Counted from the stretch's first letter, positions 18,687 through 51,475 are shown. The stretch is 64,000 nucleotides of DNA from Clostridiales bacterium (GCA_036644995.1 JAVXOZ010000009.1:3121-67120); one strand, 5' to 3'. Program-made: numbers and translations. The notes: generated by a model from the letters alone, not told the origin.

Positions 18687-18980
18687 AATACACCTCATTA
18701 GAAAAATTCGCTAAAAACCCTAAATTACCTTTTTAAAAAGAGCATTATCCTTATTTTTTACAGGATAAAATATAAATATCTTCCTATTTACTATATCTTT
18801 AAGTGTTTACCCAATTTTAAATTTTAAACTATATAAAAATAAATTATAAATATTTGCGAAAAAGTATTTAATTTTCAACAATTTAGTGTTATTATAATAG
18901 TAGTAATATTATAAGTTAAAATATCTCCCCCTTTTATTGTGATGTGGTTTCTTTTTCTACACATGAAAGGGTGAAATATT

Positions 18981-19910
18981 ATGAAAACAAAAATCGATGT
19001 TATATCGGGATTTTTAGGTGCCGGTAAAACTACCCTAATCAAAAAAATAATACAAGGTATGCCCAGTAAAGAAGATATTGCCATAGTGGAAAACGAATTT
19101 GGCGATATTGGAATAGATGGGGATATCTTAAAGTCGTGCAATATTAACGTTCGTGAAATAAGCGGCGGCTGTATTTGTTGCAGTTTACACGGAAATTTTA
19201 TAGCCGCAGTTACAGAATTAGTTAATGAATATGCGCCCCAACGCATTATCATTGAGCCAACAGGAATTGGCAAATTATCAGATGTACTCGATGCCTTAAA
19301 ATCCGCAGGGAAAAAAGTTGATATCGAGTTTAATATAATTGCAGCAGTAGTAGACCCTTTAAAATTTCAAATACTAAACAATATGTTTGGAGCGTTCTTT
19401 CACAATCAAATAGCCACAGCGCAAACCATTTTTTTAAGCAAAGCACAATTTGCAGATGAGAACACTATTATGGACGTTACTAAAAAAATAAGGGCTATAA
19501 ACCCAGTTGCAACCATTGTAACAGCACCTTGGCAGGATTTGCCCGATACAGATATATTAAAAATAGCAGAGGATGACCGTATAGATAAAATCTTGGATTT
19601 AACAAACTATACTTACAAATATAGCAAAAATGATCCCATTTCTCAAATATCTTCATTGTGCTTTTGCCCCAAAAAGCCTCACACTAAAAAAGAATTTAGA
19701 GCTTTATTAGAAAAAATAGCAACTAATAAAGAATTGGGATTGCTTTTACGTAGCAAAGGATTTTTTAGTACCCCGGAGAATAAATTCATTCAGTTTGACT
19801 ATACTCCAGGTGCCATAAAATTCACAACATCCCATACCGATGCAGAAGATAAAATTATTATCATCGGTAAAAATCTAAATAAACCGGCAATAGATAAATA
19901 TTTTTGCTGA
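18981..19910 (+). CDS. CobW/HypB/UreG-family (COG0523) GTPase metallochaperone
   Basis: 309 aa; Walker A 'GFLGAGKTT', 'CICC' metal-binding motif, CobW C-terminal domain; first gene of the methylamine module. Confidence 0.8.
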   Translation: MKTKIDVISGFLGAGKTTLIKKIIQGMPSKEDIAIVENEFGDIGIDGDILKSCNINVREISGGCICCSLHGNFIAAVTELVNEYAPQRIIIEPTGIGKLSDVLDALKSAGKKVDIEFNIIAAVVDPLKFQILNNMFGAFFHNQIATAQTIFLSKAQFADENTIMDVTKKIRAINPVATIVTAPWQDLPDTDILKIAEDDRIDKILDLTNYTYKYSKNDPISQISSLCFCPKKPHTKKEFRALLEKIATNKELGLLLRSKGFFSTPENKFIQFDYTPGAIKFTTSHTDAEDKIIIIGKNLNKPAIDKYFC

Positions 19911-19941
19911 ATAAAATATAAAAAGAAAAGAGTGAGGAAAT

Positions 19942-21786
19942 ATGGAATATAATATTAAATTTGAATCACACGATATAAGTGAAAACATAGAAGGCGGCAA
20001 AACTATATTAGAAGCAGCAGCTTTAGCATCTATTCCCATTGAAGGAAATTGCGGCGGAGCGGGAAATTGCAAAAAATGTCAAGTGGCAATTTTAGATAAT
20101 AAAGTTTTTGCGGCAAACGCCATCCCTGCCCTATCAAAAAACAAGCCACAAATGGTTCTTGCCTGCAAATATAAGATACACAGTGACCTTACCATAAACG
20201 TTCCCATTCAAAATGATGCTTTTAAACGTAAAACCACAATGAATTTTCAAAATAAAGATATAAAACCAAATTCCTCTATTGGTAAATCCTACATTGAATT
20301 GGATAAACCTTCTATTAATAACCAAATACCGGATTACGAACGCATAGTTACGGCACTGAACCTTAAGCCCGGAAATCCCAGTAAGGAATTATTGCAAATA
20401 TTGCCAAGGGTGTTACGGGATTCAAAATTTTCCATAACCGCAGTAACCAGAGATAATGAATTAATTTGGGTAGAACCCGGAGATACCACCGCAGAAAATT
20501 ACGGTTTGGTATATGATATTGGCACTACAACTGTGGTATGCCACTTGATTAATTTAACAAACGGTGCCATAGAAAAATCCACAGCAGATACCAATCCCCA
20601 AAATATTTTTGGTGCAGATGTAATTTCACGGGTTAACCACGTGATGACCAATTCCAAAAATAATAAAGGTTTAAACCAACTTTATACAAAAATAAATACC
20701 GTTATCAATGCACTTGCCGTAGAATTAATCAGAAAAAAGAGTATAGATAAAAATAGAATATATGATGTTACCGTTGTTGGCAATACAACAATGAGCCAAC
20801 TATTCATGGGTGTAGACCCCACTTATTTAGCAACATCCCCATTTATTCCCACTTACGTTCAAGGGGTGAATTTAAAAGCTTCAGAACTAAACCTGGATAT
20901 TAACCCCACAGCAAATGTTTTTTTACTTCCTAATATAGCAGGATATGTAGGCTCTGACACTGTGGGAGTAATTTTGGCAACTCATTTACATAAACAACCT
21001 GAATACAGCCTTGCCATTGATGTTGGCACCAATGGCGAACTGGCACTCAGCGGCAATGGTAAAATTCTTACTTGTTCCACCGCAGCAGGTCCCGCTTTTG
21101 AGGGTGCCCAAATAAAATGCGGCATGAGAGCAGCAGAAGGTGCCATAGAAGCCGTTTATATTGATAATGAAACAGGAACTTGTACATATGAAACCATTGG
21201 CAACACAAAACCCAAAGGTATATGCGGTTCCGGGGTATTAGATGTAGTGGCACAACTTTATAAAAGCGGTATTCTTGATAAATTTGGTGCTTTTAGATTC
21301 GGCAGAAATAACGATGGACACATCAACGATAAACTAAAAGAACGCATAAGCAAAGGTGACCACGGCTACGAATTTGTTTTGGCAACCGCTAAAGAAGCAT
21401 ATAAAGGAATACCCATTGTTATATGCCAAAAAGACATAAGGGAATTGCAAATGGGTAAAGGCGCAATTTATGCCGGCATTAAAATTTTAATGAAAGAAAT
21501 GAACATAACCGTTGAAAATCTACAAAAAATTATGATTGCCGGTGCTTTTGGCAATTATATAAAAGTTGAAAGTGCACTTGCCATAGGTTTACTGCCAAAT
21601 ATAACTAAAGATAAAATATCCTCTGTGGGAAATGCGGCTTCTGAAGGCGCAAGGCTGGCTCTAATATCTAAAGATGAAAGGGAACTCGGCTGTGAGCTGG
21701 CAAAACGCTGTAAGCATATTGAATTATCTTCATACGAAGAATTCCAAAATGAATACATGAATGCTTTAAATTTTCCTGAAATATAA
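19942..21786 (+). CDS. ramA: reductive activator of corrinoid proteins, RamA/RACo-type ([2Fe-2S] ferredoxin N-domain + ASKHA ATPase DUF4445)
   Basis: 614 aa; N-terminal 'CGGAGNCKKCQV' plant-type ferredoxin cluster; C-terminal actin-fold ATPase region; sits upstream of mtmCB. Confidence 0.75.
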   Translation: MEYNIKFESHDISENIEGGKTILEAAALASIPIEGNCGGAGNCKKCQVAILDNKVFAANAIPALSKNKPQMVLACKYKIHSDLTINVPIQNDAFKRKTTMNFQNKDIKPNSSIGKSYIELDKPSINNQIPDYERIVTALNLKPGNPSKELLQILPRVLRDSKFSITAVTRDNELIWVEPGDTTAENYGLVYDIGTTTVVCHLINLTNGAIEKSTADTNPQNIFGADVISRVNHVMTNSKNNKGLNQLYTKINTVINALAVELIRKKSIDKNRIYDVTVVGNTTMSQLFMGVDPTYLATSPFIPTYVQGVNLKASELNLDINPTANVFLLPNIAGYVGSDTVGVILATHLHKQPEYSLAIDVGTNGELALSGNGKILTCSTAAGPAFEGAQIKCGMRAAEGAIEAVYIDNETGTCTYETIGNTKPKGICGSGVLDVVAQLYKSGILDKFGAFRFGRNNDGHINDKLKERISKGDHGYEFVLATAKEAYKGIPIVICQKDIRELQMGKGAIYAGIKILMKEMNITVENLQKIMIAGAFGNYIKVESALAIGLLPNITKDKISSVGNAASEGARLALISKDERELGCELAKRCKHIELSSYEEFQNEYMNALNFPEI

Positions 21787-21904
21787 TACTTAAACCCAAG
21801 GTTAAAGAGGTATTTTCAGTTTAATACCCAATCTAAACCTTAAAGCCACAACAAAAATTTACTATTTGCAAATAATACTAATATAATAATATATCAGCAC
21901 AATA

Positions 21905-21938
21905 CACACCATTCGACAAAATGGTGTGTATTTTTTTG
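21905..21938 (+). terminator. rho-independent terminator after ramA (acacaccatt..aatggtgtgt + T8)
   Basis: 10-bp stem, T-run. Confidence 0.7.
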
Positions 21939-22132
21939 CATTAAATCGCAATTATCTAAAGATAGTACCATACTAACAAAACATAATACAATAAGCGGTG
22001 TTAAAATTTTGTTATTATGAATATAGAAAAAGAAACATTTACATCACTTTTTATTTTATTCCGAAAGGAGGATCAGTTGGTTACTATTCAAGACGATATT
22101 AAAACTTATAAAAATATAAAGGGGGTAATACA

Positions 22133-22777
22133 ATGTCCGATACAATTTTAAAGAAACTTAAAGAAGCCGTTGTAAATTTAGACCAGGAGGCCGCATTAGC
22201 CGCCGCCAAAGAAGCCTTAGACGCTAAAATGGATCCCGTTAACTCCATAGAAAATGGTTTAACAGCAGGAATGAACGAAATCGTAGATCGCTTTGATGAG
22301 GGCGAAATGTTCATGCCGCAAATCCTTATTGCCGCTCAAGCATTCATGGGTGCTTGCGAAATTTTACAAAGTGGTATTTCCGTAGAAGAAGCTGCCAAAA
22401 TGAGTAACGGCAGAGTAATGTTCTTCACAGTAGCCGGTGACATTCATGATATCGGCAAAAATATTGTTAAAACAATGTTTATGGCTAACAACTTTGAAGT
22501 TTGCGACTTAGGCCGTGACGTTGCAGCCGATGTAGTAGTTGATAAAGCTATCGAATGGAAAGCCGACATCATTGCCGGTTCCGCATTGATGACAACCACC
22601 ATGCCCGGTCAAAGAGATATCGTTGCTACTTTGGTAGAACGTGGTATCCGTGATGACTTTAAAGTAATGTTTGGTGGAGCTCCTGTTAATCAACAATGGT
22701 GTGATGAAATTGGTGCTGACGCTTATGGCGACAACGCTGCTGACTCCATCGAAATTGCTAAAAAATTAGTAAAATAA
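22133..22777 (+). CDS. mtmC: monomethylamine corrinoid protein (B12-binding, DxHxxG), MtmC-like
   Basis: 214 aa; helical cap domain then Rossmann B12-binding domain with 'GDIHDIG' (His-on cobalt ligand motif); directly upstream of mtmB. Confidence 0.85.
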   Translation: MSDTILKKLKEAVVNLDQEAALAAAKEALDAKMDPVNSIENGLTAGMNEIVDRFDEGEMFMPQILIAAQAFMGACEILQSGISVEEAAKMSNGRVMFFTVAGDIHDIGKNIVKTMFMANNFEVCDLGRDVAADVVVDKAIEWKADIIAGSALMTTTMPGQRDIVATLVERGIRDDFKVMFGGAPVNQQWCDEIGADAYGDNAADSIEIAKKLVK

Positions 22778-22802
22778 AAAATATTTGAAGGGCGGTAATA
22801 CT

Positions 22803-24188
22803 ATGACTTACAAAGAACGTGTTGGTGTTTTTGAAGCTTACCATCGTGCAATAACCGGTCCCCGTGTTAGCGAAAGCGAATGGGATAGCGTTATTATTCC
22901 CGGTACACTTACAAAACTCAAAGAAAAATATAATATCAAAATGGACAAAGGCACTGTTGTTCCTACCGATGATACTTTAATTAATAATATATTTAAAGCC
23001 GGTTTGGAAATGTTAACCACTGTTGGTGTTTATTGCATAGATACCGGCAGAGTTATTAAATATACAGAAGATGAAATCTTAACAGCCATCAAAAATACTC
23101 CCAAAGAATTTTATCTTGGTGAAGGCACTGATGCTGTTTTAATGAAAGACAGAAAACATGACTCCGAACGTTTCCCCATTATCCAAGGTGGACCTACCGG
23201 TGCTCCTGTTTCTGAAGAACAATTCTTAAATATGCATGAAGCATATGCCAAAGAACCTTTGGTAGACACCATTGTTAATGGCGTTCTCCAAACATGGCAT
23301 GGTCATGACCCCATTCCTAACACTCCTTATGAAATCGCAGCGGTTCGTTCCGAAGTTCAAATGCTTCGCTTGGCACAAACCAGAGCCGGTCATCCCGGCA
23401 TGGCATTGTAGGGCAGTGAAACTTCACTCTCTGCAGCAGGCGTTATCTGTTCTGACTTCCAAGGCGGAATGCGGCCAACAGACAGCCATGAAGTATCTCA
23501 ATTAAACGAATTGAAAATTGACTTAGCAGCTTTAACTTTCTGCTCTTACTATGTATTAAGTGGTCAAACTATTATGTGCGAACATATGCCCATATATGGC
23601 GGTTACACCGGTGGTCTTGAGGAAACGACTATCAGTGACGTTGCCAGCACGCTTAATGCTTTCGTAATGGCTCAAGGTAATTATGTATTAGACGGTCCCG
23701 TTCATATGCGTTGGGGAATCACCACTGCCAGAGAGGCTTTGGCAGTTGCTGGTCACTGTGCAAGAGCAATCAATGCTAATACAGAACTTATGTTAGCTAA
23801 CCAATATTACACCATGGCAGGTCCCTGTACTGTTATGTGCCTGTTAGAAACAGCTGCACAAGCAATGACAGATACCGCCAGCGGTCGTGAATTACTCTCC
23901 GGTGTTGCCGCCGCTAAAGGTGTTACCACCAACTTTAATACTCCTATGGAAGCCAGATTTATGGGTCAAGTTGCTCGTGCAACTGCCGGTAAAGATCTTT
24001 CAGTAGTTAATCCTATAATTGACTCATTATTGAAAATGTACGAAAAAGATTATAAAACTGCTCCTGTTGGCAAATCATTCGAAGAATGCTATGACCTTAC
24101 TACATTGCAACCTACTGATGAATATATCAGCGTATATGATGAAGCAGCAGAAGTATTAGCAAAGCTTGGTTTAGAATTAGGTAAATAA
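22803..24188 (+). CDS. mtmB: monomethylamine methyltransferase MtmB with in-frame UAG (23409-23411) decoded as pyrrolysine; single gene, not two ORFs
   Basis: ORFs 22785..23411 and 23469..24188 are in the same frame separated by exactly one TAG; the context 'GHPGMAL-UAG-GSETSLSAAG...GGMRPTDSHEVSQLNELKIDL' closely matches Methanosarcina MtmB around Pyl202 ('GRPGMGV-O-GPETSLSAQG...TDSHEVSQLNELKIDL'); UAG is codon 203 from ATG 22803; total about 461 aa, MtmB-sized. Confidence 0.85.
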
Positions 24189-24232
24189 TAATCCTTATAT
24201 AAAACCTTTGCTGGAAAGAGGGTGACGCGGAT

Positions 24233-25255
24233 ATGAATAAAAGAGAAAGATTTATGAATGCGATTCAAGGTCAAGAAACAGATAGGGTGTCCGTTTTTTG
24301 TGCCAATCAAACCGCAACATACGAACAAATGGAGGAATTGGGTGCCTCTTTTCCCGAAGCTAATTACGAAGCAGCCACTATGGCTAAATTAGCAGCGGGT
24401 GCACATAGCATTTTGGGATTTGACGCAGTTCGTGTTCCATTTTGCCAAACCATCGAATCCGAAGCTTTGGGCTGTAAGCTCCAAGATGGCGGTAAAGAAG
24501 GTATGCCAAGTATTGGCACTCATCCATACAGCGTTGATGATGAAATTCCATCCCTTGACGATTTAGTTTCCAAAGGGAGGATTCCTGTTGTTGCCGAAGC
24601 AGTTAAACTGCTTAAGGAATCTGTTGGCGATGAAGTCGCTGTTCTTGGTGGGATTGTTGGCCCATTTAGTATCGCCACAAACTTACTGGGTCTTATGAAT
24701 ATCATGATGGCCGTTGTTATGGAACCCAAAAAATTAGAACCTTGGTTAGAGCTTGCGGGAGATGCAGCCACCATTTATGGTGATGCATTAATCGAAGCAG
24801 GAGCCGATGGCATAGTTATTGAAGATATGATGGCATCCATGGATATGATTAGCCCTCAAATCTATCACGACCTTGCCGGTCCCTATATGAAGCGTTTGGT
24901 TGATCGCTTAGGCGATATTCCCACTATTCTTCATATATGCGGAAAAGTAAACAAATTAGTTGTTGATATGATTGATACCGGCGTTTCTGCCTTTAGTGTA
25001 GATACGAATATTGATATTGCAGATATTCAAGACAAAATCGCAAAAAGCGGCAAAACCGTTATGGTTGTAGGCGGAATTGATGCAGTAAACACATTATTCT
25101 ATGGCACCGAAATTGGTCCTACCACAGAAGAAGGAACAAAAGCAATTAAAGCCGGGTTTAATTTACTTGCACCCTCCTGCTCCATTCCTCCTGCTACACC
25201 AGTTACAAAACTGCGTGCAATGGTAGAAGTTGCGGTTTCGTTAGCCGGTAAATAA
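24233..25255 (+). CDS. methylcorrinoid:acceptor methyltransferase (MT2), uroporphyrinogen-decarboxylase (URO-D) family, MtbA/MtaA-like
   Basis: 340 aa; URO-D fold; 'ILHICGKV' with His-x-Cys zinc ligands typical of MtaA/MtbA. Confidence 0.75.
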   Translation: MNKRERFMNAIQGQETDRVSVFCANQTATYEQMEELGASFPEANYEAATMAKLAAGAHSILGFDAVRVPFCQTIESEALGCKLQDGGKEGMPSIGTHPYSVDDEIPSLDDLVSKGRIPVVAEAVKLLKESVGDEVAVLGGIVGPFSIATNLLGLMNIMMAVVMEPKKLEPWLELAGDAATIYGDALIEAGADGIVIEDMMASMDMISPQIYHDLAGPYMKRLVDRLGDIPTILHICGKVNKLVVDMIDTGVSAFSVDTNIDIADIQDKIAKSGKTVMVVGGIDAVNTLFYGTEIGPTTEEGTKAIKAGFNLLAPSCSIPPATPVTKLRAMVEVAVSLAGK

Positions 25256-25356
25256 ATTATTTACTAAAAGAAGGGAATGTCGCAAAATATTCAAGCGATA
25301 TTCCTTTCTTTTCTTTTTTTTAATATGAGTTTTTTTAATATGAGTGGGGTGTTAAC

Positions 25357-26550
25357 ATGATCAATTCCGGTGATATTGCTTTTCTAATTATCTGCACATT
25401 AATTGTTATACTAATGACACCTGGAGTTGCAATTTTATATGGTGGTTTAGTAGATAAAAAACACACTAACACCATGATAATGCAAAATTTTATTGCTATT
25501 ACTATTATAACCTTGGTTTGGGCTATTTGCGGCTTTACTATAGCCTACGGCAATAATATTGCCGGTGGATTTATAGGTGGCTTTGATTATTTATTTTTGC
25601 AGGGGGTTTCTGCCGAACCTCATGCAATATTAGCTCCAACCGTACCTTTTACTCTATTTTTTGTATTACAAGCAGCTTTCGCCATCATTACCCCGGCTTT
25701 AATTTGCGGGGCTTTGGTGGGTAGAGCCAGACTTTTACCATACGTGATTTTTATCGCTTTATGGAGTCTTTTAATTTACAGCCCTGTGGTTCACTGGGTT
25801 TGGGGCGGTGGATTTTTAAGCCAATGGGGCTACATAGATTTCGCCGGTGGCGTACCTGTGCATATGATTGCAGGATTTTCTGCCTTAGCTGCGGTAATTG
25901 CCTTGGGTAACAGAAAAATTCCTAAAGATGGACCCAGCAACATGATGCACCTGGCAATAAGCATGGGCATTTTATGTGCGGGCTGGTTTGCCTTTAACAC
26001 TTGCAGTGCATTAGCAGCCAATGCTACTGCGGCTGTGGCTGCCACCAATACCTTATTAGCGGCTGCTGCAGGTAGTTTTATGTGGTTGATTTTGGGCTAT
26101 ATAAAGAACAAAAAGGCCGACTTATTAGATATATTTTTCGGAATATTAGCCGGTCTTGTGGTTAGTTCTCCCATATCGGGATTTGTTTCACCTTGGGTAG
26201 CTATGATTAGTGGTTTCATCGCCGGATTGTTCTGCTATTATGCTGTGCAATTCCGCACCTATAAAAATTGGGATGATACTTTAGATGTATGGGCTATTCA
26301 CGGTTGTGGTGGTTTGCTTGGGGTTTTAATTGTGGGTCTTTGTGCGAACCCCGCAATAGCACCAACAGCAGGTCTTTTATACGGCAATTCCCAACAACTG
26401 CTAATACAGGCAAGTGGCATATTAATTGGCGGACTATATAGCTTTATACTCACCTTTGTGTTAATAAAAGTTATTAATAAAGTTTGTCCTTTTAACTTTA
26501 AAAAAGACCATCCTGAATTTGAAGCAACCAAACAGGATATAAGTCTTTAA
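25357..26550 (+). CDS. amt: Amt/MEP-family ammonium/methylammonium permease
   Basis: 397 aa, about 11 TM helices; Amt signature 'DFAGG..VH' and conserved His in TM regions; last gene of the mtm module. Confidence 0.8.
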   Translation: MINSGDIAFLIICTLIVILMTPGVAILYGGLVDKKHTNTMIMQNFIAITIITLVWAICGFTIAYGNNIAGGFIGGFDYLFLQGVSAEPHAILAPTVPFTLFFVLQAAFAIITPALICGALVGRARLLPYVIFIALWSLLIYSPVVHWVWGGGFLSQWGYIDFAGGVPVHMIAGFSALAAVIALGNRKIPKDGPSNMMHLAISMGILCAGWFAFNTCSALAANATAAVAATNTLLAAAAGSFMWLILGYIKNKKADLLDIFFGILAGLVVSSPISGFVSPWVAMISGFIAGLFCYYAVQFRTYKNWDDTLDVWAIHGCGGLLGVLIVGLCANPAIAPTAGLLYGNSQQLLIQASGILIGGLYSFILTFVLIKVINKVCPFNFKKDHPEFEATKQDISL

Positions 26551-26578
26551 GAAAAACAATGAAATAATCCATATAAAT

Positions 26579-26623
26579 AAAAGCACATATTCAATTATAC
26601 AAACTTGAATATGTGCTTTTATA
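26579..26623 (+). terminator. rho-independent terminator after amt (aaagcacatattcaa..ttgaatatgtgcttt + T)
   Basis: 15-bp stem. Confidence 0.7.
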
Positions 26624-26887: not shown

Positions 26888-26958
26888 AACTTAGATAATT
26901 TCACATAACTTAATTGAGATAATTTCACATAATTTAATTGAAATATTTTCACATATAT
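26888..26958. repeat. three tandem copies of a ~24-bp unit 'ttaattgaRataWtttcacataay'
   Basis: direct tandem repeats in convergent intergenic region between amt and the AraC-family gene. Confidence 0.6.
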
Positions 26959-27081: not shown

Positions 27082-28350
27082 TTACTCTTTCCATTTGCTG
27101 GGGGAAACCCCTTCGCAACGTTTAAACATTTTGATGAAATAACTTTGGTCATTAAACCCTACACTGCTGGCTATTTGAGCCAAGGGCATATCATCACGTA
27201 AATACTGTTTACTTGCTTCTATTCTCACCTTATTTAGGTGATCCGAATAGGTTTGTCCTGTTTGTTTTTTGATTAAATTACTTAAATAAGTGGGGTTTAA
27301 TGCTACCTCACTTGCCAACTTTTGCAAAGAAATATCCATATAATTTTTGTTAATATATTCAAGTGCCTGAAAAATTATATCATTAACCCGATATTTGCTA
27401 CCATTCCAAAATGCCTGTTGAAAACGGGGCACGGTATTATAAAGAGCCTGATTTAGCTGTTCATTATTTGTTGCAGTTAAAATATCACAAATAGTAACAC
27501 ATTGTTTTCCAAATATAGTTTCCAAGTTTAAATCTCTTTTTTTGGCAATTTGCAATAATGTGTAAAAAAATCTGGCTGCCCTATATTTGCTTTCTTCAAA
27601 AACATTATGCTTATGTATTCTGTCTATAAATTTATACAAAATCATCTCTAAGGCTTTTTGACTCTGGATCAAATTGCCACCGGGCTTTAAAAGTTCTATT
27701 TCTCTTTCTAAAATGAAATAGTCTTGGTTAAAATCCGGATAAATATTTGTGCGGATTTGCTTTTTAAGTTCGTTAATTAAAGTACCTATTTGGTTTTGCT
27801 TTTCATTATAATTAACCGATGTAGATTCTAAACCAGGCACATTTTGAATGGATTTTTGCAAAACATTACTTAACGCCCTAATATGAGAGGTATCTTTCAA
27901 TGGTACATCATTTAATAATTGGTCAATTTCGCTATAATGAGTATTCAAAAGTTCATTTCTGTCTAAAAAATTATTCACTATATACTTATTTGGTTCGTGT
28001 ATTAAAATTGGTCCCGTAGAAGCAAAATAAACATTGTCATCATCTAAAAATACAGGTACGGTGATATTCAGCAAGCCATAAGGGCATAAATAATAATGAG
28101 CGTCTGTGGTTACCAAGGTTTGTTTACAATTACAAACATAATCATGGACACAAACCCCTGTTTTGTCATACTGCTTAATGTAATTACAAATGTCAGCACA
28201 TTCGTAGCAACTGCGGTTGCCTACCTTTTTACCTATTCCATCAAACAAGTAACAATTTACGCTGGTTGCCATTTCATAATCACTGATAGCAGATTTGATT
28301 TCTTTTAAGGCATGATAGTATTCCAACATATTTGAGTCCTCCCCGCTCAA
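27082..28350 (-). CDS. AraC/XylS-family transcriptional regulator with Cys-rich N-terminal sensor domain
   Basis: 422 aa; C-terminal dual HTH 'LASEVALNPTYLSNLIKKQTG...QIASSVGFNDQSYFIKMFKR'; N-terminal domain with CxxC...C-x-C cluster. Confidence 0.75.
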   Translation of the reverse strand: MSGEDSNMLEYYHALKEIKSAISDYEMATSVNCYLFDGIGKKVGNRSCYECADICNYIKQYDKTGVCVHDYVCNCKQTLVTTDAHYYLCPYGLLNITVPVFLDDDNVYFASTGPILIHEPNKYIVNNFLDRNELLNTHYSEIDQLLNDVPLKDTSHIRALSNVLQKSIQNVPGLESTSVNYNEKQNQIGTLINELKKQIRTNIYPDFNQDYFILEREIELLKPGGNLIQSQKALEMILYKFIDRIHKHNVFEESKYRAARFFYTLLQIAKKRDLNLETIFGKQCVTICDILTATNNEQLNQALYNTVPRFQQAFWNGSKYRVNDIIFQALEYINKNYMDISLQKLASEVALNPTYLSNLIKKQTGQTYSDHLNKVRIEASKQYLRDDMPLAQIASSVGFNDQSYFIKMFKRCEGVSPSKWKE

Positions 28351-28896: not shown

Positions 28897-29937
28897 ATGC
28901 ACAAACACGGAGGCGACGTTTATACTTATGAAAATATGGTAGATTTTTCTGCCAACATCAACCCACTGGGTATTCCCCAAAGCATTGTTTTGGCAGCCAC
29001 CAAAGGGGCTACCTTATCTGCCCAATATCCCGATGTGGAATGTAGGGAATTAAAAAAATCATTGGCTATTGCCGAAGATATAAAAAGCGAAAATATTGCT
29101 TGCGGCAACGGTGCCGCAGATTTGATTTTTTCTTTGGTTTTAGCAACCAAACCCAAAAAAGCAATTATGCTGGCTCCTACTTTTTACGAATATGAGCAGG
29201 CACTGCGTGCCATTGATTGCGAGATTATATACCACGAATTAACAGAAACCAATAATTTTGAATTAAAAAATGATTATTTAAACATTTTAGATGAATCAGT
29301 TGATATAATTTTTATATGCAATCCCAACAATCCCACAGGGTTGTTGGTGGATAAAGATTTTTTAGCAAAAGTATTGGAAAAATGTGAAAAAAATAACATT
29401 CTTTTTGTTTTAGATGAATGTTTTAACGATTTCCTTGATTACCCCACAGAATATTCCATGAAAGATTTTATACCAAAAAGCAAAAATCTTTTTATTTTAA
29501 AAGCATTTACTAAGCTTTACGCCATGGCGGGTTTAAGATTGGGCTACGGTTTTTCTTCCAATCAGGAATTAATGGCAAAAATAAAAGAAGTTACTCAACC
29601 TTGGAATGTTTCCACCCCTGCCCAACACTGCGGCATTGCAGCTTTAAAAGAAACTGAATATGTTGCCAAAGCCAGAAAAATAGTAAAAGAAGAACGGAAC
29701 TATCTACAAAAAAGTTTGGAATCTTTGGGCTTAACATTATACAATTCCATGGCGAATTACATCTTTTTTAAAGGTCCCGAAAATCTTGGGGATAAAACCA
29801 AAGAACACGGCTTTATGATTAGAGATTGCAGCAACTACCACGGTTTAACCAATGGCTTTTATCGCATTGCGGTGAGAGATCATAACGAAAATACAGGGCT
29901 TATTGCTGTTTTGGAAAAAATTTTAAAGGAGTGTTAA
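28897..29937 (+). CDS. cobD: L-threonine-O-3-phosphate decarboxylase (PLP-dependent class I/II aminotransferase fold)
   Basis: 346 aa; HisC/CobD-like; PLP-lysine region 'LKAFTKLYAMAGLRLGY'; gene context (followed by cobO). Confidence 0.75.
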   Translation: MHKHGGDVYTYENMVDFSANINPLGIPQSIVLAATKGATLSAQYPDVECRELKKSLAIAEDIKSENIACGNGAADLIFSLVLATKPKKAIMLAPTFYEYEQALRAIDCEIIYHELTETNNFELKNDYLNILDESVDIIFICNPNNPTGLLVDKDFLAKVLEKCEKNNILFVLDECFNDFLDYPTEYSMKDFIPKSKNLFILKAFTKLYAMAGLRLGYGFSSNQELMAKIKEVTQPWNVSTPAQHCGIAALKETEYVAKARKIVKEERNYLQKSLESLGLTLYNSMANYIFFKGPENLGDKTKEHGFMIRDCSNYHGLTNGFYRIAVRDHNENTGLIAVLEKILKEC

Positions 29938-29939
29938 CC

Positions 29940-30464
29940 ATGAAGGGATTAATACACATTTATACAGGCGACGGCAAAGGTAAATCCACCGCTGCCATTG
30001 GTTTAACCCTGCGTTGTGCAGGCTCTAACCATGATGTAATCTATACTCAATTTTTAAAAAACGGTAAATCATCAGAAATAAACATACTAAAAACCATCCC
30101 CAATATTAAACTGTTTTTTGCAGAAAAAAACTTTGGTTTTTTATTTAATGCCACAGATGAAGTAAAAGCAGAAGCAAAAATTGTTTATTCAAAATTATTA
30201 AAAACAGTGGTTGAAGCAGCCATAGAAACTAAACCCCAACTTTTGGTGCTTGATGAAATAATAGCCACTTATAATCACGATTTAATAGATAAAAATTATT
30301 TACTTGATTTTCTAAAAAATAAACCTGAAAATTTAGAAATTGTAATGACAGGGCGAGAACCCAGTCAAGAGCTAATAGAACTTGGGGATTACGTATCCAA
30401 TATCCAAAAGATTAAGCACCCATTTGATAAAGGAATCCCAGCCAGAATCGGCATAGAAAAATAA
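29940..30464 (+). CDS. cobO: cob(I)yrinic acid a,c-diamide / cob(I)alamin adenosyltransferase (CobA/CobO/BtuR type)
   Basis: 'GDGKGKSTAA' P-loop characteristic of CobA-type adenosyltransferases; RBS aaggag 8 nt before ATG 29940. Confidence 0.8.
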   Translation: MKGLIHIYTGDGKGKSTAAIGLTLRCAGSNHDVIYTQFLKNGKSSEINILKTIPNIKLFFAEKNFGFLFNATDEVKAEAKIVYSKLLKTVVEAAIETKPQLLVLDEIIATYNHDLIDKNYLLDFLKNKPENLEIVMTGREPSQELIELGDYVSNIQKIKHPFDKGIPARIGIEK

Positions 30465-30564
30465 CCCCACCTCTTAATCGATGGATTTTTACCTGAATTT
30501 GCATAGCACAATAAACCCACTTCACCCAAGGTCTTTTTGCCCAAATTTCTTTAAAAGAATAAGC

Positions 30565-30604
30565 AAATGCCCATAGCACAATAAAGTGCTATGGGCATTT
30601 TTAT
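30565..30604. terminator. bidirectional terminator between cobO (+) and cbiK (-): aatgcccatagcac aataaa gtgctatgggcatt + T5
   Basis: 14-bp perfect stem. Confidence 0.75.
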
Positions 30605-30699
30605 ATTACGCTCTGTAATATTTTATGGTTAAATAAAACAACAGGGTTTATTGCCTTGGAATATGTTCTTATGTTCTAAAGAATTATATATTTCTCTAT

Positions 30700-31485
30700 T
30701 TATTTGATATTTACAGCATTTAAAGCGTGGTTCACGAAAATTTTTCTGATTTTTGGATATTCGCCCAAACCTTTTAATTGGCATTCAACTCCAAAGCCTT
30801 CTTTTTTTAACAGATTTTGCCAAGCATCATCATCTTCACCTGCCATATCATTGGTGGCATGATCCCCGGCAACTATCATAAAAGGTGCCAAAGTAATTTT
30901 TTTAGGCGAAAAGGCTTTCACCATTTTCAACATGGTAGGAAAATCCGGATATGCCTCCACAGTGCCCATAAACACATTGGTATAGCCTAAATCTTTAAAC
31001 ATATAGTCAAGTGCCGCATACACCGTATTGGTGGCGTGGGCAGTGCCGTGCCCCATAAAAACCAAGGCTTCATCTTTGGGTAAATCCCCATATTCCGCCA
31101 TGATAGCCTTTATGGTATCGAAAAAATCTTCGGTGTACATCAATAGCGGATTGCCAAAAGCAATGGAATCAAAATCCGCTGCAAAAGCCATAACATCTTC
31201 TTTCATAATATCATTTTCAATACCACTTAAAATATGAGTTGGCTGTACCACTAAATTTTTAACACCCTGAGCTTTCATGGTTTCCATAGCTTCAGTTACG
31301 GTATTTATTTTAATATTATCACGTTTCATAACTTTTTTTATGATAATTTTACTGGTCCAAGCTCTGTAAAGTGAATATTCAGGAAAAGCCGCCTGTAAAT
31401 CTTGCTCTAATTTATCAATGGTTTTTTCTCTGGTTTCATGATAGCTGGTACCAAAGCTAACTACTAAAAGTCCTTTACTTGCCAT
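30700..31485 (-). CDS. cbiK: sirohydrochlorin cobaltochelatase (anaerobic pathway)
   Basis: 261 aa; CbiK-like two-domain chelatase with conserved His ligands; in cbiMNQO-cbiK operon. Confidence 0.8.
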   Translation of the reverse strand: MASKGLLVVSFGTSYHETREKTIDKLEQDLQAAFPEYSLYRAWTSKIIIKKVMKRDNIKINTVTEAMETMKAQGVKNLVVQPTHILSGIENDIMKEDVMAFAADFDSIAFGNPLLMYTEDFFDTIKAIMAEYGDLPKDEALVFMGHGTAHATNTVYAALDYMFKDLGYTNVFMGTVEAYPDFPTMLKMVKAFSPKKITLAPFMIVAGDHATNDMAGEDDDAWQNLLKKEGFGVECQLKGLGEYPKIRKIFVNHALNAVNIK

Positions 31486-31486
31486 T

Positions 31487-32332
31487 TTATTGCTCCTTTG
31501 TGTTGTGAATATATTTTTCTAAAGTATCCAAATTCCGAGGTATGGGTAAACCTGCACTTAAAATTCCATTATTGGTGAGATTTTCAAATAACCGTAAAGC
31601 CGCAGGTTTTGCTAAATTAGTTTTTAGCAAGGCAGCCTCATCAGAAAACACATCTTCGGGACTTCCCTTAAGCAACACGCTTCCTTCGTGAAAAAGCACC
31701 ACTTCATCTGCCCATTCAAAGGCATGGTCCACATCGTGGGTGGCTATAACAATGGTAATGCCACGGCTGGCTAATTTATCAATCAAAGAATTAACAATAG
31801 CGGTATGTTTAGGGTCTAAAGCAGCCGCAGGTTCATCCAGCACTATTATTTCCGGATGCATAACCAAAATATCCGCCACAGAAACCTGTTTTTTTTGCCC
31901 TCCACTTAAAAAATGTGTGGGTTTATCACGGAAATCACTTATTTCCAAATCAGCTATTGCCTGTTCTACCCTACTTTTAGCTTCTTCTGTGCTTAAACCT
32001 ATGTTTAAAGCTCCAAAGGAAATCTCCTGATATACGTTGGCAGAAAACAGTTGATTATCGGGATCTTGAAAGACTATACCAACTTTTGTGCGAATATCCA
32101 GCAGTCCCTTTCTGGAATAATCATAGGGCGTGCCATTAAGATAAAGCTTGCCGCCATTTGGTTTATTTATGCCATTTAAACAAAGGAAAAAAGTGGATTT
32201 TCCCGAGCCATTTGCCCCTAAAAATGCTACTTTTTTACCTTTGGTAATTTCCAAATCAATGCCTTTTAAGGCTTTTGTACCATCATCATATGTAAAACTG
32301 AGATTTTCTGCCTTAATTATAATATTGTCCAT
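31487..32332 (-). CDS. cbiO: cobalt ECF transporter ATPase component
   Basis: Walker A 'GANGSGKST', ABC signature 'LSGGQKKQV', Walker B 'VLDEPAA'. Confidence 0.85.
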   Translation of the reverse strand: MDNIIIKAENLSFTYDDGTKALKGIDLEITKGKKVAFLGANGSGKSTFFLCLNGINKPNGGKLYLNGTPYDYSRKGLLDIRTKVGIVFQDPDNQLFSANVYQEISFGALNIGLSTEEAKSRVEQAIADLEISDFRDKPTHFLSGGQKKQVSVADILVMHPEIIVLDEPAAALDPKHTAIVNSLIDKLASRGITIVIATHDVDHAFEWADEVVLFHEGSVLLKGSPEDVFSDEAALLKTNLAKPAALRLFENLTNNGILSAGLPIPRNLDTLEKYIHNTKEQ

Positions 32333-32389
32333 TATCCTACTCCTAAATTGTTAAGTTGAAATATGCGTAAAAAGAAAAATTTTTTCAAC

Positions 32390-33166
32390 TTACCCATAAA
32401 TATGGATTACCACAGAAACCATGACCAAAGCTATATCAAAAAGAACCATAAACCAAATTTCTTTTTTATCGGTTATATATTCTTCTTCCAAAACAGTTAT
32501 TTTACCTGTATAACACCGAGATTCCATGGCATCGAAAAGTCTTGAAGATTTTTGAAAAGAGCGAATCAGCAAAACCGCCATTAAACTCCCAATAGAACTG
32601 CACGAAGTTTTAAAATTTTTATTACCCAAACGACTTTTTTGAGCCACAGTAAGTGCAGAGGCAATATCCAATAAAACAAAAATAAAACGGTAAATCAACA
32701 GCATCAACTCTATTAGCATCTCAGGACAACGCAGTCTTTTCAACACCATAAGTATATCTGTTATGGGAGTGGAAAGAGAGAGAAAATACAAAGATGAAAC
32801 CGATGCCAGTGCAGTAATGATTAATTGCGCCGCAAATAGTAAAGAATCAACACTGGAGGTAATATACCAGCTAAAAAACGGTATAGCAAAGGCAGATAGT
32901 GGCACTGAAGATATATTGATAATAATTGCCACTGTGCTTAAAATAAGGAAAACCAAGGGAATGGACATTAGCTTCAGAAAATAGGTAAAGGAAGTCCCAT
33001 TGTAAAATACAATGAGACTTCCCATTACCAGTAAAGCAATGGTAGACACAGTAATTGAGCGTGAAATAACGCATATCAACAAAGTTAATACTGCAAATAG
33101 AAATTTAATTGTTGGATTTTTATGCCGTAATTCCGAGGAATAACTCAATTTGTCAATAATAATCAT
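32390..33166 (-). CDS. cbiQ: cobalt ECF transporter T (transmembrane) component
   Basis: polytopic membrane protein after cbiN; start taken at 'MIIIDKLSY' (ATG 33166), which leaves a 4-nt gap from cbiN instead of a 59-nt overlap. Confidence 0.75.
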   Translation of the reverse strand: MIIIDKLSYSSELRHKNPTIKFLFAVLTLLICVISRSITVSTIALLVMGSLIVFYNGTSFTYFLKLMSIPLVFLILSTVAIIINISSVPLSAFAIPFFSWYITSSVDSLLFAAQLIITALASVSSLYFLSLSTPITDILMVLKRLRCPEMLIELMLLIYRFIFVLLDIASALTVAQKSRLGNKNFKTSCSSIGSLMAVLLIRSFQKSSRLFDAMESRCYTGKITVLEEEYITDKKEIWFMVLFDIALVMVSVVIHIYG

Positions 33167-33170
33167 GTGT

Positions 33171-33530
33171 TTACTTTTCCTTCTTGCCGCTCTTTGTTTT
33201 AGCTTCCACATTGCCGATATTTGCGGCATTTAGCTTTTTATTTTTAGAGCGTTCCCTTAAAGTTCCGAAACCAAAACCGATGATGCCTGCTCCCAATGCA
33301 GCCTGTAAGCTGAAAAGTAAGGACTCTGTTTCACCACCGGGTGGTTCCATCATTGAGGATGCCCAAGGCTGATAATCAGGGTTGATTTCCGTTATTGCTT
33401 CTTCTGCCTGACCATCTGCACCGCCAAATTCCGAATCTTTGATTGTCATCAGGGGGATAATGGCAATGAGTACACAAGCCAATAGCATAACCAAAACAAT
33501 AAGTGTGTTTTTAGAAGTTTTACCTGCCAT
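33171..33530 (-). CDS. cbiN: cobalt transport protein CbiN
   Basis: 119 aa, two TM helices, between cbiM and cbiQ. Confidence 0.75.
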   Translation of the reverse strand: MAGKTSKNTLIVLVMLLACVLIAIIPLMTIKDSEFGGADGQAEEAITEINPDYQPWASSMMEPPGGETESLLFSLQAALGAGIIGFGFGTLRERSKNKKLNAANIGNVEAKTKSGKKEK

Positions 33531-34282
33531 TATTTTATTCCTCCTTTTAAATAGCCCAAATCTGTTAATTCATCTTTGGCAAAGGATTCTAAGCCAATGA
33601 TTACAACAACAGTTACCAGGCCTTCAATGATTGCAAGAGGAACTTGGGTTGCAGCAAAAATACCCATGAATTTTATCAGCGAGGCAGTAAACCCACCCAC
33701 CTCCGAGGGGTAAGCCAAAGCCAGTTGAAACGAGGTTATTACATAAGTAAATAAATCACCTAAACACGCAGCCAGAAAAACAGCAACACGCTTGGGACAT
33801 TTAATTTTTAATGAGAGTTGGTAAATAGCAAAAGCGATGAAAGGACCTGCTATTGCCATGGAAAAAGTGTTTGCGCCCAAGGTTGTTAATCCACCATGAG
33901 CCAAAAGAATAGCTTGAAAAAGTAATACGATAATACCAATAATACTCATAGCTGAGGGGCCAAATAAAATAGCACCCAACCCTGTACCCGTGGGATGTGA
34001 ACTACTACCTGTTACCGATGGTATTTTTAATGCTGACAGTACAAATGCGTAGGCACCTACCATAGCTAATAACAGAAGAACGCGTCTGTTTTCTTTGATT
34101 GTTTTTTTAATAGAGAAAAAACCGGCGATGAGAAAGGGAATGCACAATGCGCCCCATGCGATGCAATATTGTATTGGCAAATACCCCTCCATGATGTGCA
34201 TTGCGCTTACCCCCGGGGTAAGGCTGAATACCACGGCAAAGCCCGCAGCAATAGACACAATGCGTTGTTGTTTAGTTGTCAT
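33530..34282 (-). CDS. cbiM: cobalt ECF transporter S component CbiM
   Basis: 250 aa; N-terminal 'MHIMEGYLP' (conserved Met-His N-terminus of CbiM/NikM); about 7 TM. Confidence 0.85.
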
Positions 34283-34309
34283 GTTTGCCTCCTAATTATT
34301 ATACAAAAT

Positions 34310-34540
34310 AAAAACACCCTACTTGCACGACCAAGTAAGGTGTTTGATGATTCCATGGAAATCATTACACATTGCCATCGACCGTAACAAAAGTGTAGGT
34401 ACCCCATACTTGGCAGGTCTTCTGGCTCAAAGGGCTTACCCTTCTTACAGCGGCGCGACCGCGCAGGATTCTCACCTGACTTCCCTATTCTCCCGTCCAT
34501 TGACTGAACGAGCACCAAATATGTTCTGTTTGTGAATATG
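34310..34540 (-). promoter_or_regulatory. cobalamin riboswitch upstream of cbiMNQO-cbiK
   Basis: minus strand 'AGGGAAGTCAGGTGAGAATCCTGCGCGGTCGCGCCGCTGTAAGAAGGG' matches the cobalamin-riboswitch core (AGGGAA..GGUGnnAAUCC..GCGG..CGCC-B12 box-like GCCGCUG). Confidence 0.7.
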
Positions 34541-34724
34541 TTAGCACAGCGGTAAATCAATGTCAATATTATTTTTTTATTAAATCCAATATTTTGCCTT
34601 AAAATCCTTGGAAATTCCGCACTTTTACTGGATTTAAAAGATTATCAAAAATATAAAAAATAATACTTGAATTTTTTCAAATATTGTAATATACTATTAC
34701 TTAGTTCTTATACAATTTGAACAA

Positions 34725-34900
34725 GCGGTGCCTTTTGGCATAAAAGAAAAGCAGGCTAAAATCCTGCACTGTCCCAGCAACCGTATTACTGACGAAAAGA
34801 TGTAAACCACTGTTTCTAAGGAAATGGGAAGGTATCTGAGTAGAATGAAGTTAAGTCGGTAGACCTACCGTTTGTAATTTTTCTCCTGGGTAGAGTTTTT
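34725..34900 (+). promoter_or_regulatory. probable second cobalamin riboswitch, divergent, upstream of cobQ-cbi-hem operon
   Basis: 'GGTGCC...AAAAGCAGGCTAAAATCCTGCACTGTCCCAGCAACCG...ACCACTG' contains GGUGCC, AAAAUCC and B12-box-like elements but deviates from the consensus order. Confidence 0.4.
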
Positions 34901-34965
34901 TATTGTGCGTAATTTTAGCTATTTAAAACCGTTCCGAGGTTGGAGCGGTTTTTTTATTTATAAAT

Positions 34966-36465
34966 ATGGAGGTGTTGATAATGAAAGGAATTATGATTCA
35001 AGGCTGCACAAGCGATGCAGGGAAAAGCTATGTAACCACTGCCTTGTGCCGCATTTTTAAAGATATGGGCTACAAAACCTGTCCTTATAAAAGCCAAAAT
35101 ATGTCCAATAACTCCTATGTAACTTGGGATGGTTGCGAAATTGGCCGTGCCCAAGGCGTTCAGGCTGAAGCTGCAGGGGTAAGACCCGAAACATATATGA
35201 ACCCTATTTTACTGAAGCCACAAAAAGATTGCGGTTCTGAAGTTGTGTTATTCGGTAAAGTATATAAAACCCTTTCCGGCAAAGAATATCACGATTCATT
35301 TACGATGAATGAAGGGTTAAAAGCCGCCCGTGAAGGGTTAAAAATCATTGAAGAAAAGTTTGATGTCATCGTCATTGAGGGTGCAGGCAGCCCTGCGGAA
35401 GTTAATTTAAACGACAGAGAAATAGTAAATATGCGTATAGCCAACGAAGCAGATGTACCTGTTTTACTGGTGGTTGATATCAACCGTGGTGGTTCTTTTG
35501 CCTCGGTGGTTGGCACTTTGGAATTAGTGGGTAAAGACCGTAGCCGCATTAAAGGCATTATTTTCAACCAATTCCGTGGTGACCTTTCCCTTTTTGAAGA
35601 TGGGGTTAAATGGATAGAAGAATACACAGGCATTAAAGTAGTTGGGGTTTTACCATACTTTAAAGATATTCAAATTGAAGGTGAGGATTCTTTAAGCATA
35701 AAATTCCAGCATAATAGCGGTTCTAAAGATGCAGTGGAACTGGGAATAGTGCGTATGCCCTATATATCCAACCACACAGATATGGAAATTTTTCAATATG
35801 AAGATGATGTAAATATTAGCTTTATAGATGAATTTTCATCTTTGGATAAATACGATGCCATAATTATTCCCGGCACCAAAAGCACCATCGGGGATTTGGA
35901 ATATTTGGAACAGCGTGGTGTTGCCGCCAAATTAAAAGCCTTTAAAGGCACTATTTTTGGAATTTGCGGCGGTTATCAAATAATGGGGGAAACCTTAATA
36001 GATGAAAATGGTATAGATTTTAAACCCGGCTACAAAAAAGAAGGATTGGGAATTTTACCTTTAACCACCTATTTTCAAAAGCAAAAAGAGGTGGGTCAGG
36101 TAACTGCCAAAGGCATACACCCAGCCGTTAAAGATATTGAAGTTTTGGGCTACGAAATACATTTGGGCAGAACCGATAAAACCAACGATGATATTTTACC
36201 CCTTTGGGAAATAGACGGTCACTGGGATGGGGTTGCCACCAAAGACTTTAGATGTGCGGGTTCCTACCTACACAATATTTTCCACAACGATAATTTCCGC
36301 ACTATTTGGTTAAACCAAATCAGAGCCAAAAAATCTTTACCCCAGCGTGAAGCCGTAGATACCGTGGCTTTTAAAGAAGAACAATACAGAAAGCTGGGAG
36401 AATATGCCAAAGAATATTTGGATATGGACTATATTATGAGCTTAATGAAAGAAGGAAATGAATAA
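34966..36465 (+). CDS. cobQ: cobyric acid synthase (CobQ/CbiP), DTB-synthetase-like ATPase + GATase1 domain
   Basis: 499 aa; N-terminal 'QGCTSDAGKSY' P-loop; C-terminal glutamine amidotransferase with 'GICGGYQ'. Confidence 0.85.
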   Translation: MEVLIMKGIMIQGCTSDAGKSYVTTALCRIFKDMGYKTCPYKSQNMSNNSYVTWDGCEIGRAQGVQAEAAGVRPETYMNPILLKPQKDCGSEVVLFGKVYKTLSGKEYHDSFTMNEGLKAAREGLKIIEEKFDVIVIEGAGSPAEVNLNDREIVNMRIANEADVPVLLVVDINRGGSFASVVGTLELVGKDRSRIKGIIFNQFRGDLSLFEDGVKWIEEYTGIKVVGVLPYFKDIQIEGEDSLSIKFQHNSGSKDAVELGIVRMPYISNHTDMEIFQYEDDVNISFIDEFSSLDKYDAIIIPGTKSTIGDLEYLEQRGVAAKLKAFKGTIFGICGGYQIMGETLIDENGIDFKPGYKKEGLGILPLTTYFQKQKEVGQVTAKGIHPAVKDIEVLGYEIHLGRTDKTNDDILPLWEIDGHWDGVATKDFRCAGSYLHNIFHNDNFRTIWLNQIRAKKSLPQREAVDTVAFKEEQYRKLGEYAKEYLDMDYIMSLMKEGNE

Positions 36466-37409: not shown

Positions 37410-37420
37410 ACGGAGGAAAT

Positions 37421-38050: not shown

Positions 38051-38053
38051 GCC

Positions 38054-41404: not shown

Positions 41405-41416
41405 GGAGAAATTAAA

Positions 41417-42915: not shown

Positions 42916-42916
42916 C

Positions 42917-44299: not shown

Positions 44300-44301
44300 C
44301 T

Positions 44302-45558: not shown

Positions 45559-45559
45559 A

Positions 45560-49471: not shown

Positions 49472-49472
49472 A

Positions 49473-50765: not shown

Positions 50766-50775
50766 GGAGTGTAAT

Positions 50776-51471: not shown

Positions 51472-51475
51472 GAAT

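Follow-up and report, generated by a model that had tools for sequence, protein, structure and literature searches.

The 64,000-nucleotide (nt) stretch of Clostridiales bacterium DNA analysed here (GCA_036644995.1 JAVXOZ010000009.1:3121-67120; the whole stretch is called the window) carries between positions 18981 and 26550 six plus-strand open reading frames (ORFs) arranged head to tail. They encode a COG0523 protein, a RACo-type reductive activase, the corrinoid protein MtmC, the methylamine methyltransferase MtmB with an in-frame TAG codon, a second methyltransferase (MT2) and an Amt channel (Table 1). An earlier note on this DNA had placed the same six genes at these positions, and every family assignment was upheld by matches in Pfam, NCBIfam and PDB; the gene identities and the overall function that it proposed (methylamine import, methyl capture on the corrinoid protein, hand-off and reactivation) agree with our analysis as well. 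We read the locus, with a probability of about 0.8, as a bacterial pyrrolysine-dependent monomethylamine (MMA) demethylation module organised in three predicted transcription units.

Table 1. Features of the module and of its surroundings, in window coordinates.
Feature	Position	Strand	Description
COG0523	18981..19910	+	309 aa; Pfam cobW 125 bits, and CobW_C
RACo-type activase	19942..21786	+	614 aa; Pfam Fer2, RACo_linker, Raco_middle, RACo_C_ter
Intrinsic-terminator-like hairpin	21901..21939	+	13-bp stem, 6-nt loop, then T7; -18.1 kcal/mol, z = -5.08
Conserved block with extended -10-like element	21966..22018	+	TG 22010-22011, TATTAT 22013-22018; no good -35
mtmC	22133..22777	+	214 aa; B12-binding_2 and B12-binding, TIGR02370
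mtmB	22803..24188	+	461 codons; Pfam MtmB (PF05369), 1TV2 alignment
In-frame TAG of mtmB, codon 203	23409..23411	+	aligns to Pyl202 of 1TV2
MT2 (MtaA/CmuA family, URO-D fold)	24233..25255	+	340 aa; NF004889, TIGR01463, PDB 4AY7
amt	25357..26550	+	397 aa; PF00909, PDB 2B2F
Terminator candidate after amt	26577..26622	+	perfect 18-bp hairpin, A-/T-run flanks; -21.1 kcal/mol, z = -7.4
PocR sensor + AraC-type helix-turn-helix (HTH) regulator	27082..28350	-	422 aa; Pfam PocR, HTH_18, HTH_AraC
Cobalamin, cobalt uptake and Hem island	28897..52237		includes the two cobalamin riboswitches
Cobalamin riboswitch	34395..34534	-	
Cobalamin riboswitch	34709..34886	+	

The two halves of mtmB lie in one frame, parted only by the TAG, and both match the Pfam MtmB profile (positions 2-195 and 197-450 of 450, with 262 and 406 bits). 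With a lysine set at the TAG, residues 1-457 of the product align with residues 1-456 of Methanosarcina barkeri MtmB1 (PDB 1TV2; E 5.6e-159), the TAG falling on residue 202, the pyrrolysine (Pyl) of that enzyme; MtmB1 is colinear from residue 1, and the start was assigned to the ATG at 22803, not to the TTG at 22785. A scan of one genome per species returned 469 loci with MtmB relatives, and all neighbour counts given below refer to the best 80 matches in 79 loci and to genes at most 10 kb from mtmB. These 80 matches are all bacterial and 67–84% identical to the window protein, their hosts including metagenome-assembled genomes (MAGs) of Peptococcaceae, Sporomusa, Desulfosporosinus, Desulfobulbus, Coriobacteriia, gut Lachnospiraceae and Ruminococcus. 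Every one of the 80 copies has a TAG at the pyrrolysine codon, and the reading frame goes on past it with 67–84% identity.

MtmB needs tRNA-Pyl and PylSBCD. In the 64-kb window pylT is absent, ARAGORN giving only tRNA-Trp and tRNA-Leu there and readily detecting pylT at other bacterial mtmB loci, and no Pyl biosynthesis or synthetase gene was found among the 48 gene-sized window ORFs scanned outside the module. The genome must carry the genes of the pyrrolysine machinery at some other place. The module was described earlier as self-contained, and this cannot be maintained, since the window holds neither pylT nor pylSBCD, nor an acceptor-side pathway or a folate-type MT2. Indirect support for pyrrolysine decoding comes from the stop codons of the 48 window genes (TAA 42, TGA 5, TAG 1), the near-absence of TAG being consistent with an organism that reads it. 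The lone TAG stop belongs to scpB (54170-54898, minus strand), where a TGA two codons further on backs it up. The segment just 3' of the mtmB TAG (23409-23508) matches Rfam PYLIS_1 (RF01982) with 74.5 bits against a gathering threshold of 70. Over 73 distinct bacterial mtmB sequences, however, its covariation (0.074) does not rise above that of slid controls (0.082 and 0.099), and pairing is kept in 73% of the cells overall and in only 60% in the inner helix; a structured recoding signal was therefore rejected for want of covariation support, and the Rfam match was put down to conserved codons.

The corrinoid protein passes TIGR02370 (230.4 against a cut-off of 215.3), carries the cobalt-ligand motif DxHxxG as DIHDIG (residues 103-108) and stays below the cut-offs of the MtgC, MtaC and MtbC equivalogs, which disposes of the possibility, raised earlier as a way in which the assignment could fail, that it is a paralog from a betaine or methanol system. 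A corrinoid-protein gene stands directly 5' of mtmB in 77 of the 79 bacterial loci. The activase matches Carboxydothermus hydrogenoformans RACo (PDB 3ZYY) along its entire length (E 2.8e-109), all four Pfam domains (Fer2, RACo linker, middle and C-terminal ASKHA) being above cut-off, and its N-terminal [2Fe-2S] ferredoxin motif C-x5-C-x2-C-x28-C is made up of Cys37, 43, 46 and 75. The earlier note had called it RamA-type. RamA is recognised by the cut-off of TIGR04270 together with a C-terminal 2x[4Fe-4S] ferredoxin domain, and the window protein scores 135 against 500 on that model, with the N-terminal Fer2 [2Fe-2S] as its sole iron-sulfur domain, so that this architecture was wrongly assigned. 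It is also below the AcsV equivalog (470 against 800) and so is no orthologue of RACo/AcsV. Judged by its domains, the protein is a RACo-type ATP-dependent reductive activase, which would do the job of RamA while belonging to a different branch.

Methylamine use that depends on pyrrolysine is familiar from methanogens, and in bacteria too it was recognised over a decade ago; the locus is one more example of the known bacterial Pyl-mtmB clusters, its combination of genes being lineage-specific and its parts standard. A RACo-type activase occurs near mtmB in 43 of the 79 loci, any URO-D gene in 50, one with 45% identity or more to the MT2 of the window in 11, an Amt gene in 24, a COG0523-like gene in 16 and a PocR homologue in one; pylT is present anywhere in the locus in 46 and directly 3' of mtmB (within 400 nt, as in L015 at 10889-10960) in 35. 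The closest relatives are Peptococcaceae UBA7702 (L014), HRGM_4028 (L013) and the loci L008 and L096, the last in a genome that carries a protein named for Dehalobacterium formicoaceticum. These four share mtmC-mtmB(TAG)-MT2, usually followed by amt, and carry a PocR-sensor/AraC-HTH regulator, varying in position and orientation; they are without COG0523-RACo at this site, and within the clade only the window organism adds both genes. The MT2 of L013 and L014 is 71% identical to that of the window, and a protein identical to the latter is found in an NCBI MAG labelled Clostridiales bacterium. Identical proteins are encoded in the MAG GCA_036652275.1, on contig JAVVWF010000006.1, and the Logan runs SRR25820364-368 are further sources of this genome. 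As independently assembled Logan sequences of this organism (L010, L011) carry the same six genes and the core recurs in the four relatives, the arrangement is not due to chance. The best matches of MtmB and MT2 suggest that the source is an uncultured relative of Dehalobacterium and Peptococcaceae.

The six genes are probably not transcribed together. RACo and mtmC are separated by 346 nt, and the hairpin in this gap probably ends the COG0523-activase transcript. The conserved block that follows it aligns with the mtmC upstream regions of L014, L008, L013, L096 and L006 and persists in relatives that do not have the two upstream genes. An extended -10 element without a good -35 is what is expected of an activator-dependent promoter, and the block is likely, on the strength of this sequence pattern, to be such a promoter for mtmC. 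Owing to the hairpin and the conserved block, the position of COG0523 at the head of the mtm operon, where it had been put before, is doubtful. At the other end, the hairpin that starts 27 nt past the amt stop is likely to be the terminator of mtmC-mtmB-MT2-amt. The gene for the PocR-AraC regulator, which was missing from the gene list of the earlier note and is conserved with the core in relatives (its homologues adjoin mtmC-mtmB-MT2 in L008, L014, L012 and L096), is convergent with amt and has its own terminator at about 27022-27066 (z = -8.9) and a promoter at 28592-28564 that agrees with the consensus at 12 of 12 positions. Three predicted units, COG0523-RACo, mtmC-mtmB-MT2-amt and the regulator, are the more likely layout.

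Further elements were seen in the non-coding parts. Some 60 nt before the real ribosome-binding site, the mtmC leader (22060-22132) shows another conserved GGAGG-like element, which is also present in the aligned leaders of L006, L008, L013, L014 and L096 and could belong to a leader peptide or to a regulatory structure; a search for riboswitches and leader RNAs over 18600-29000 at permissive thresholds gave chance-level matches only. Between amt and the gene of the regulator, a spacer of 530 nt holds a 24-nt tandem repeat (26894-26941) of two perfect copies of GATAATTTCACATAAYTTAATTGA and a partial third. It was considered as a possible operator and discarded, no further copy being found anywhere in the window.

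MT2 passes both models of the MtaA/CmuA subfamily (NF004889, 316 against 244; TIGR01463, 270.9 against 235.4) but neither the MtbA equivalog (NF041608, 262 against 600) nor that of MtaA (NF040654, 303 against 400). It is 36% identical to Methanosarcina mazei MtaA (PDB 4AY7; E 6e-65), and its zinc ligands His234, Cys236 and Cys316 show no variation among 120 sequences, namely 119 bacterial homologues and MtaA. Its closest studied homologue (51%) is the MtaA of the methanol methyltransferase operon Desku_0050-60 of Desulfofundulus (Desulfotomaculum) kuznetsovii, the proteins of which are induced on methanol plus cobalt, with methyl-tetrahydrofolate (methyl-THF) as the hypothesised product (PMC5770442). 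Within the UroD superfamily the His-Cys-Cys set marks sulfur and selenium (S/Se) methyltransferases, and no UroD-type folate methylase is known (Kountz and Balskus, PMC10418091); the MT2 that serves methylamines in bacteria was described as uncharacterised by Kivenson et al. 2021 (PMC8318568). A search with two pterin-binding queries taken from O-demethylase-like clusters found no folate-type MT2 in the window and none in any of the 79 loci up to 10 kb from mtmB, and the usual view of MT2 as a folate methylase of the MeTr type found no support. Physiological analogy suggests that the methyl acceptor may be tetrahydrofolate, whereas the chemistry of the active site suggests a thiol.

In the COG0523 protein the Walker A motif (GFLGAGKTT), the CxCC motif (GCICC) and the Walker B ExxG motif (EPTG) are intact, while the G4 guanine-recognition motif NKxD has become SKAQ (residues 152-156, window 19434-19448), LSKAQ aligning with LTKTD of YjiA, the best PDB match. 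Of 122 aligned sequences, 99 have Gln at position 156, and roughly 100 of the 120 closest homologues have S-[RK]-[TA]-Q, metal-locus members included. An intact NKxD was called defining for G3E GTPases (Haas 2009, PMC2770081). Its replacement, with the other motifs intact, hints at an altered nucleotide specificity in a large Firmicutes clade of COG0523. SKAQ/SRTQ was also considered as a marker of corrinoid-linked members and rejected, being common to those of metal homeostasis too. The protein is below every NCBIfam equivalog cut-off (CobW, TIGR02475: 104.7 against 332.1), and its best homologues are only 40–45% identical to it.

Genomic contexts divide the relatives of this protein. Of the six closest homologues looked up, three lie in O-demethylase-like clusters with corrinoid-protein, URO-D and pterin-binding genes, and the other three in loci of the order FUR - COG0523 - cobW/ArsP_1 - DUF1980, with ZnuA/ABC-3 next to one. 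The idea that the clade is specific to B12 clusters was rejected, corrinoid, URO-D, RACo and MtmB genes being near none of 80 metagenome loci, in which the gene is mostly accompanied by a second cobW-domain gene or by DUF1980; only a sub-branch of the clade is recruited to corrinoid systems. In relatives of the window protein (L097, L098, L103, L129, L102, L177-L179) the usual next gene is a second cobW-domain gene, fused to or followed by an ArsP_1 permease and DUF1980 and often behind a FUR-family gene, which looks like a conserved metal-homeostasis cassette. The COG0523 gene had been regarded as no canonical member of mtm clusters; an association of COG0523 genes with corrinoid methyltransferases and ramM was published in 2009 as that of subfamily 13 (Haas et al. 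2009, PMC2770081), and a COG0523-like gene recurs, as stated, near 16 of the 79 mtmB loci. In 13 of these 16 the COG0523-like gene lies no more than about 620 nt from a URO-D gene, 12 of the pairs being on the same strand. Many of the genes in question belong, unlike the window gene, to a second group, in which NKxD is intact and CxCC is replaced by GS[VI]FC (L018, L025, L028, L035, L044, L057, L076). In several loci, among them L025, L028 and L057, some 460 nt separate a gene of this group from a URO-D gene of low identity, and the spacing suggests that a small conserved gene lies between them. The most economical reading of the window protein is that of a metal-homeostasis chaperone, probably for zinc, recruited for the zinc-dependent URO-D MT2; we prefer it to that of a B12 repair factor because half of the closest relatives looked up are found in Fur/Zur-type metal loci.

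Amt proteins conduct methylammonium. The product of the last gene of the module scores 311 bits on PF00909 (cut-off 23) and is marginally below TIGR00836 (340.4 against 343.3); its best PDB match is Amt-1 of A. fulgidus (2B2F, E 4e-77), and the alignment of the two shows that the twin histidines of the pore are kept. From its family, the import of the substrate is plausible, and the export of ammonium equally so.

Taken together, these assignments suggest the following sequence of events. Amt would conduct methylammonium inward, and the ammonium produced may leave through it too. MtmB, by means of the pyrrolysine at codon 203, would move the methyl group of MMA to the Co(I) of MtmC, and MT2, as an MtaA-like zinc enzyme, would take it from methyl-Co(III)-MtmC to the cellular acceptor. 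MtmC oxidised to Co(II) would be reduced back to Co(I) by the RACo protein, with ATP and its [2Fe-2S] cluster. COG0523 would most likely load zinc into MT2, the PocR-AraC protein is the probable activator of the mtmC promoter, and B12 would come from the neighbouring cobalamin island. In this compact and clearly delimited locus the gene for the bacterial MT2 step directly follows mtmB, and its product has a zinc site of the thiol type. A COG0523 protein with relatives in zinc homeostasis adjoins a zinc methyltransferase and an activase here, which suggests a concrete client for a poorly understood family of chaperones.

Several observations weigh against this reading, or against parts of it. 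The decoding of the TAG is predicted from sequence, neither pylT nor pylSBCD being present in the 64-kb window, and the boundaries of the transcription units are likewise predictions. The zinc site of MT2 bears the S/Se-methyltransferase signature, in a superfamily for which no URO-D folate methylase has been described (PMC10418091), and the search for a folate-type MT2 was negative both in the window and in all 79 loci (10 kb). As to COG0523, its NKxD motif is degenerate, the wider clade was linked to corrinoid genes in none of the 80 loci of the metagenome scan, and its most likely role, with zinc, is drawn from gene context.

These points lead to different views of single components. The absence of pyl genes and tRNA-Pyl from the window would also be expected if the organism were unable to decode pyrrolysine, the TAG then being a real stop and mtmB split or decayed. 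This is very improbable, given that all 80 bacterial copies have TAG at this codon, that the frame downstream is conserved (67–84% identity) and that a single one of 48 window genes ends in TAG, with a TGA behind it. The zinc site allows MT2 to be seen as a thiol or selenol methylase proper, which would pass the methyl group to a coenzyme-M-like or other small thiol and not directly to tetrahydrofolate, so that the module would feed methyl-sulfur metabolism or a thiol-mediated route into C1 metabolism. The invariance of His234, Cys236 and Cys316, the S/Se class to which such a set belongs, the lack of pterin-binding MT2 genes near any of the 79 mtmB loci and the uncharacterised state of the bacterial methylamine MT2 all speak for it. 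Coenzyme M synthesis, however, is not known from such bacteria, acetogens and sulfate reducers require methyl-tetrahydrofolate, the homologous D. kuznetsovii operon was interpreted as a supply of methyl-THF (PMC5770442), and the ligand set may have been merely inherited; we consider a thiol acceptor unlikely. Equally unlikely is the combined proposal that MT2 is a zinc thiol methylase working through a methyl-thioether intermediate in a non-methanogen, with COG0523 as its dedicated zinc-insertion factor; if true, it would fill the second methyltransferase step of bacterial methylamine use with a chemistry thought to be typical of methanogens.

The position of COG0523, 31 nt upstream of the RACo gene, would also suit a chaperone for cobalt or for corrinoid, akin to CobW or MeaB, that acts in B12 synthesis or, together with the activase, in the loading of corrinoid into MtmC. 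The order cobW-then-RACo is found in D. kuznetsovii (L095) and in L018 too, COG0523 adjoins ramM in Methanosarcina (Haas 2009, PMC2770081), and the cobalamin island is 9 kb off. The score on the CobW equivalog (104.7 against 332) nevertheless argues otherwise, as do the FUR/ZnuA-type loci of three of the six nearest homologues and the proximity of the COG0523-like gene to a URO-D gene in 13 of 16 mtmB loci, 12 times on the same strand; moreover, the island uses CbiK, the anaerobic chelatase, which works without CobW. A role with cobalt or corrinoid is thus not the one that we would expect, and zinc delivery to MT2 is retained as the most likely function. The presence of an Amt channel, normally a component of nitrogen assimilation, in the operon and near 24 of the 79 mtmB loci might mean that the module serves mainly for nitrogen scavenging, MMA being demethylated for its ammonium and the methyl group being a by-product. 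The investment in pyrrolysine, B12, an ATP-dependent activase and a dedicated MT2 fits catabolic methylotrophic systems, no GlnB/GlnK gene is adjacent to amt, and the regulator is of the PocR/AraC type and not a nitrogen regulator, which makes this purpose quite improbable.

The surroundings of the module were examined as well. The cobalamin/heme and cobalt uptake island that had been noted downstream is real and includes the two riboswitches of Table 1. Its B12 genes are those of a CobD-type aminotransferase, BtuR/CobA, CbiK, CbiO/Q/M, CbiP, CbiB, C, D, E/T, G, J and CbiA, accompanied by HemA, C, D, B and L and by several corrin methylases. On the minus strand, a single ORF (477 aa, 14593-16026) joins Fpg/MutM (glycosylase, H2TH and zinc finger) to the dephospho-CoA kinase CoaE, which are usually encoded by two adjacent genes downstream of polA, and a DUF3786 protein is encoded at 3646-4254 (minus strand), a family often found beside corrinoid and Wood-Ljungdahl genes. 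A ZTP riboswitch (10116-10193, minus strand, 54 bits) lies upstream of AICARFT/IMPCHase (purH-like, 8900-10072), which is the usual arrangement. At the far end, an open frame of at least 1181 codons (60458-64000, plus strand) runs off the window, its start resembling ATPase activators of the BadF/BcrA type.

The best-known counterpart of the module is the MMA:coenzyme M methyltransferase system of M. barkeri (mtmCB, mtmP, MtbA, RamA). The two are alike in the colinear MtmB with pyrrolysine at the same residue, in the corrinoid gene directly 5' of mtmB, in a zinc MT2 of the MtaA/MtbA family and in an ATP-dependent activase. They differ in that the window belongs to a bacterial host, with PolA, riboswitches and an AraC regulator, that its MT2 is encoded in the operon and scores below the cut-offs of both the MtbA and the MtaA equivalog, and that its activase has the RACo architecture with [2Fe-2S], not that of RamA. 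The window further adds COG0523 and the PocR-AraC regulator, and pyl genes are not adjacent. Its transporter is an Amt channel, whereas the archaeal mtmP encodes a permease of another type. Compared with other bacterial mtm loci (Sporomusa, Desulfosporosinus and others), with which it shares mtmC-mtmB with the TAG and in which RACo, URO-D, Amt and COG0523-like genes recur, the clade of the window has an MtaA-like MT2 directly after mtmB, and PocR, where 35 of the 79 loci have pylT, with RACo downstream.

The D. kuznetsovii operon Desku_0050-60 (L095) resembles the window in its MtaA-family MT2 (51%), corrinoid proteins and RACo-type activases, and it also holds two cobW/COG0523 genes and a BtuR/CobA gene; its substrate methyltransferase, however, is MtaB, for methanol, instead of Pyl-MtmB, and its cobW proteins keep the canonical NKxD and are only 26% identical to the COG0523 protein of the window. 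The RACo of C. hydrogenoformans (3ZYY) has the same four-domain architecture as the window activase, the partner of which would be a small Pyl-type corrinoid protein and not CoFeSP. Finally, its corrinoid methyltransferase and activase neighbours liken the window COG0523 to subfamily 13 of Haas 2009 (PMC2770081). With this subfamily and with the Zur-regulated COG0523 zinc chaperones it has Walker A, CxCC and CobW_C in common, as well as close homologues in FUR/ZnuA loci, and it differs from them in the NKxD motif, which is SKAQ in the window protein and S-R-T-Q in most of its close homologues.

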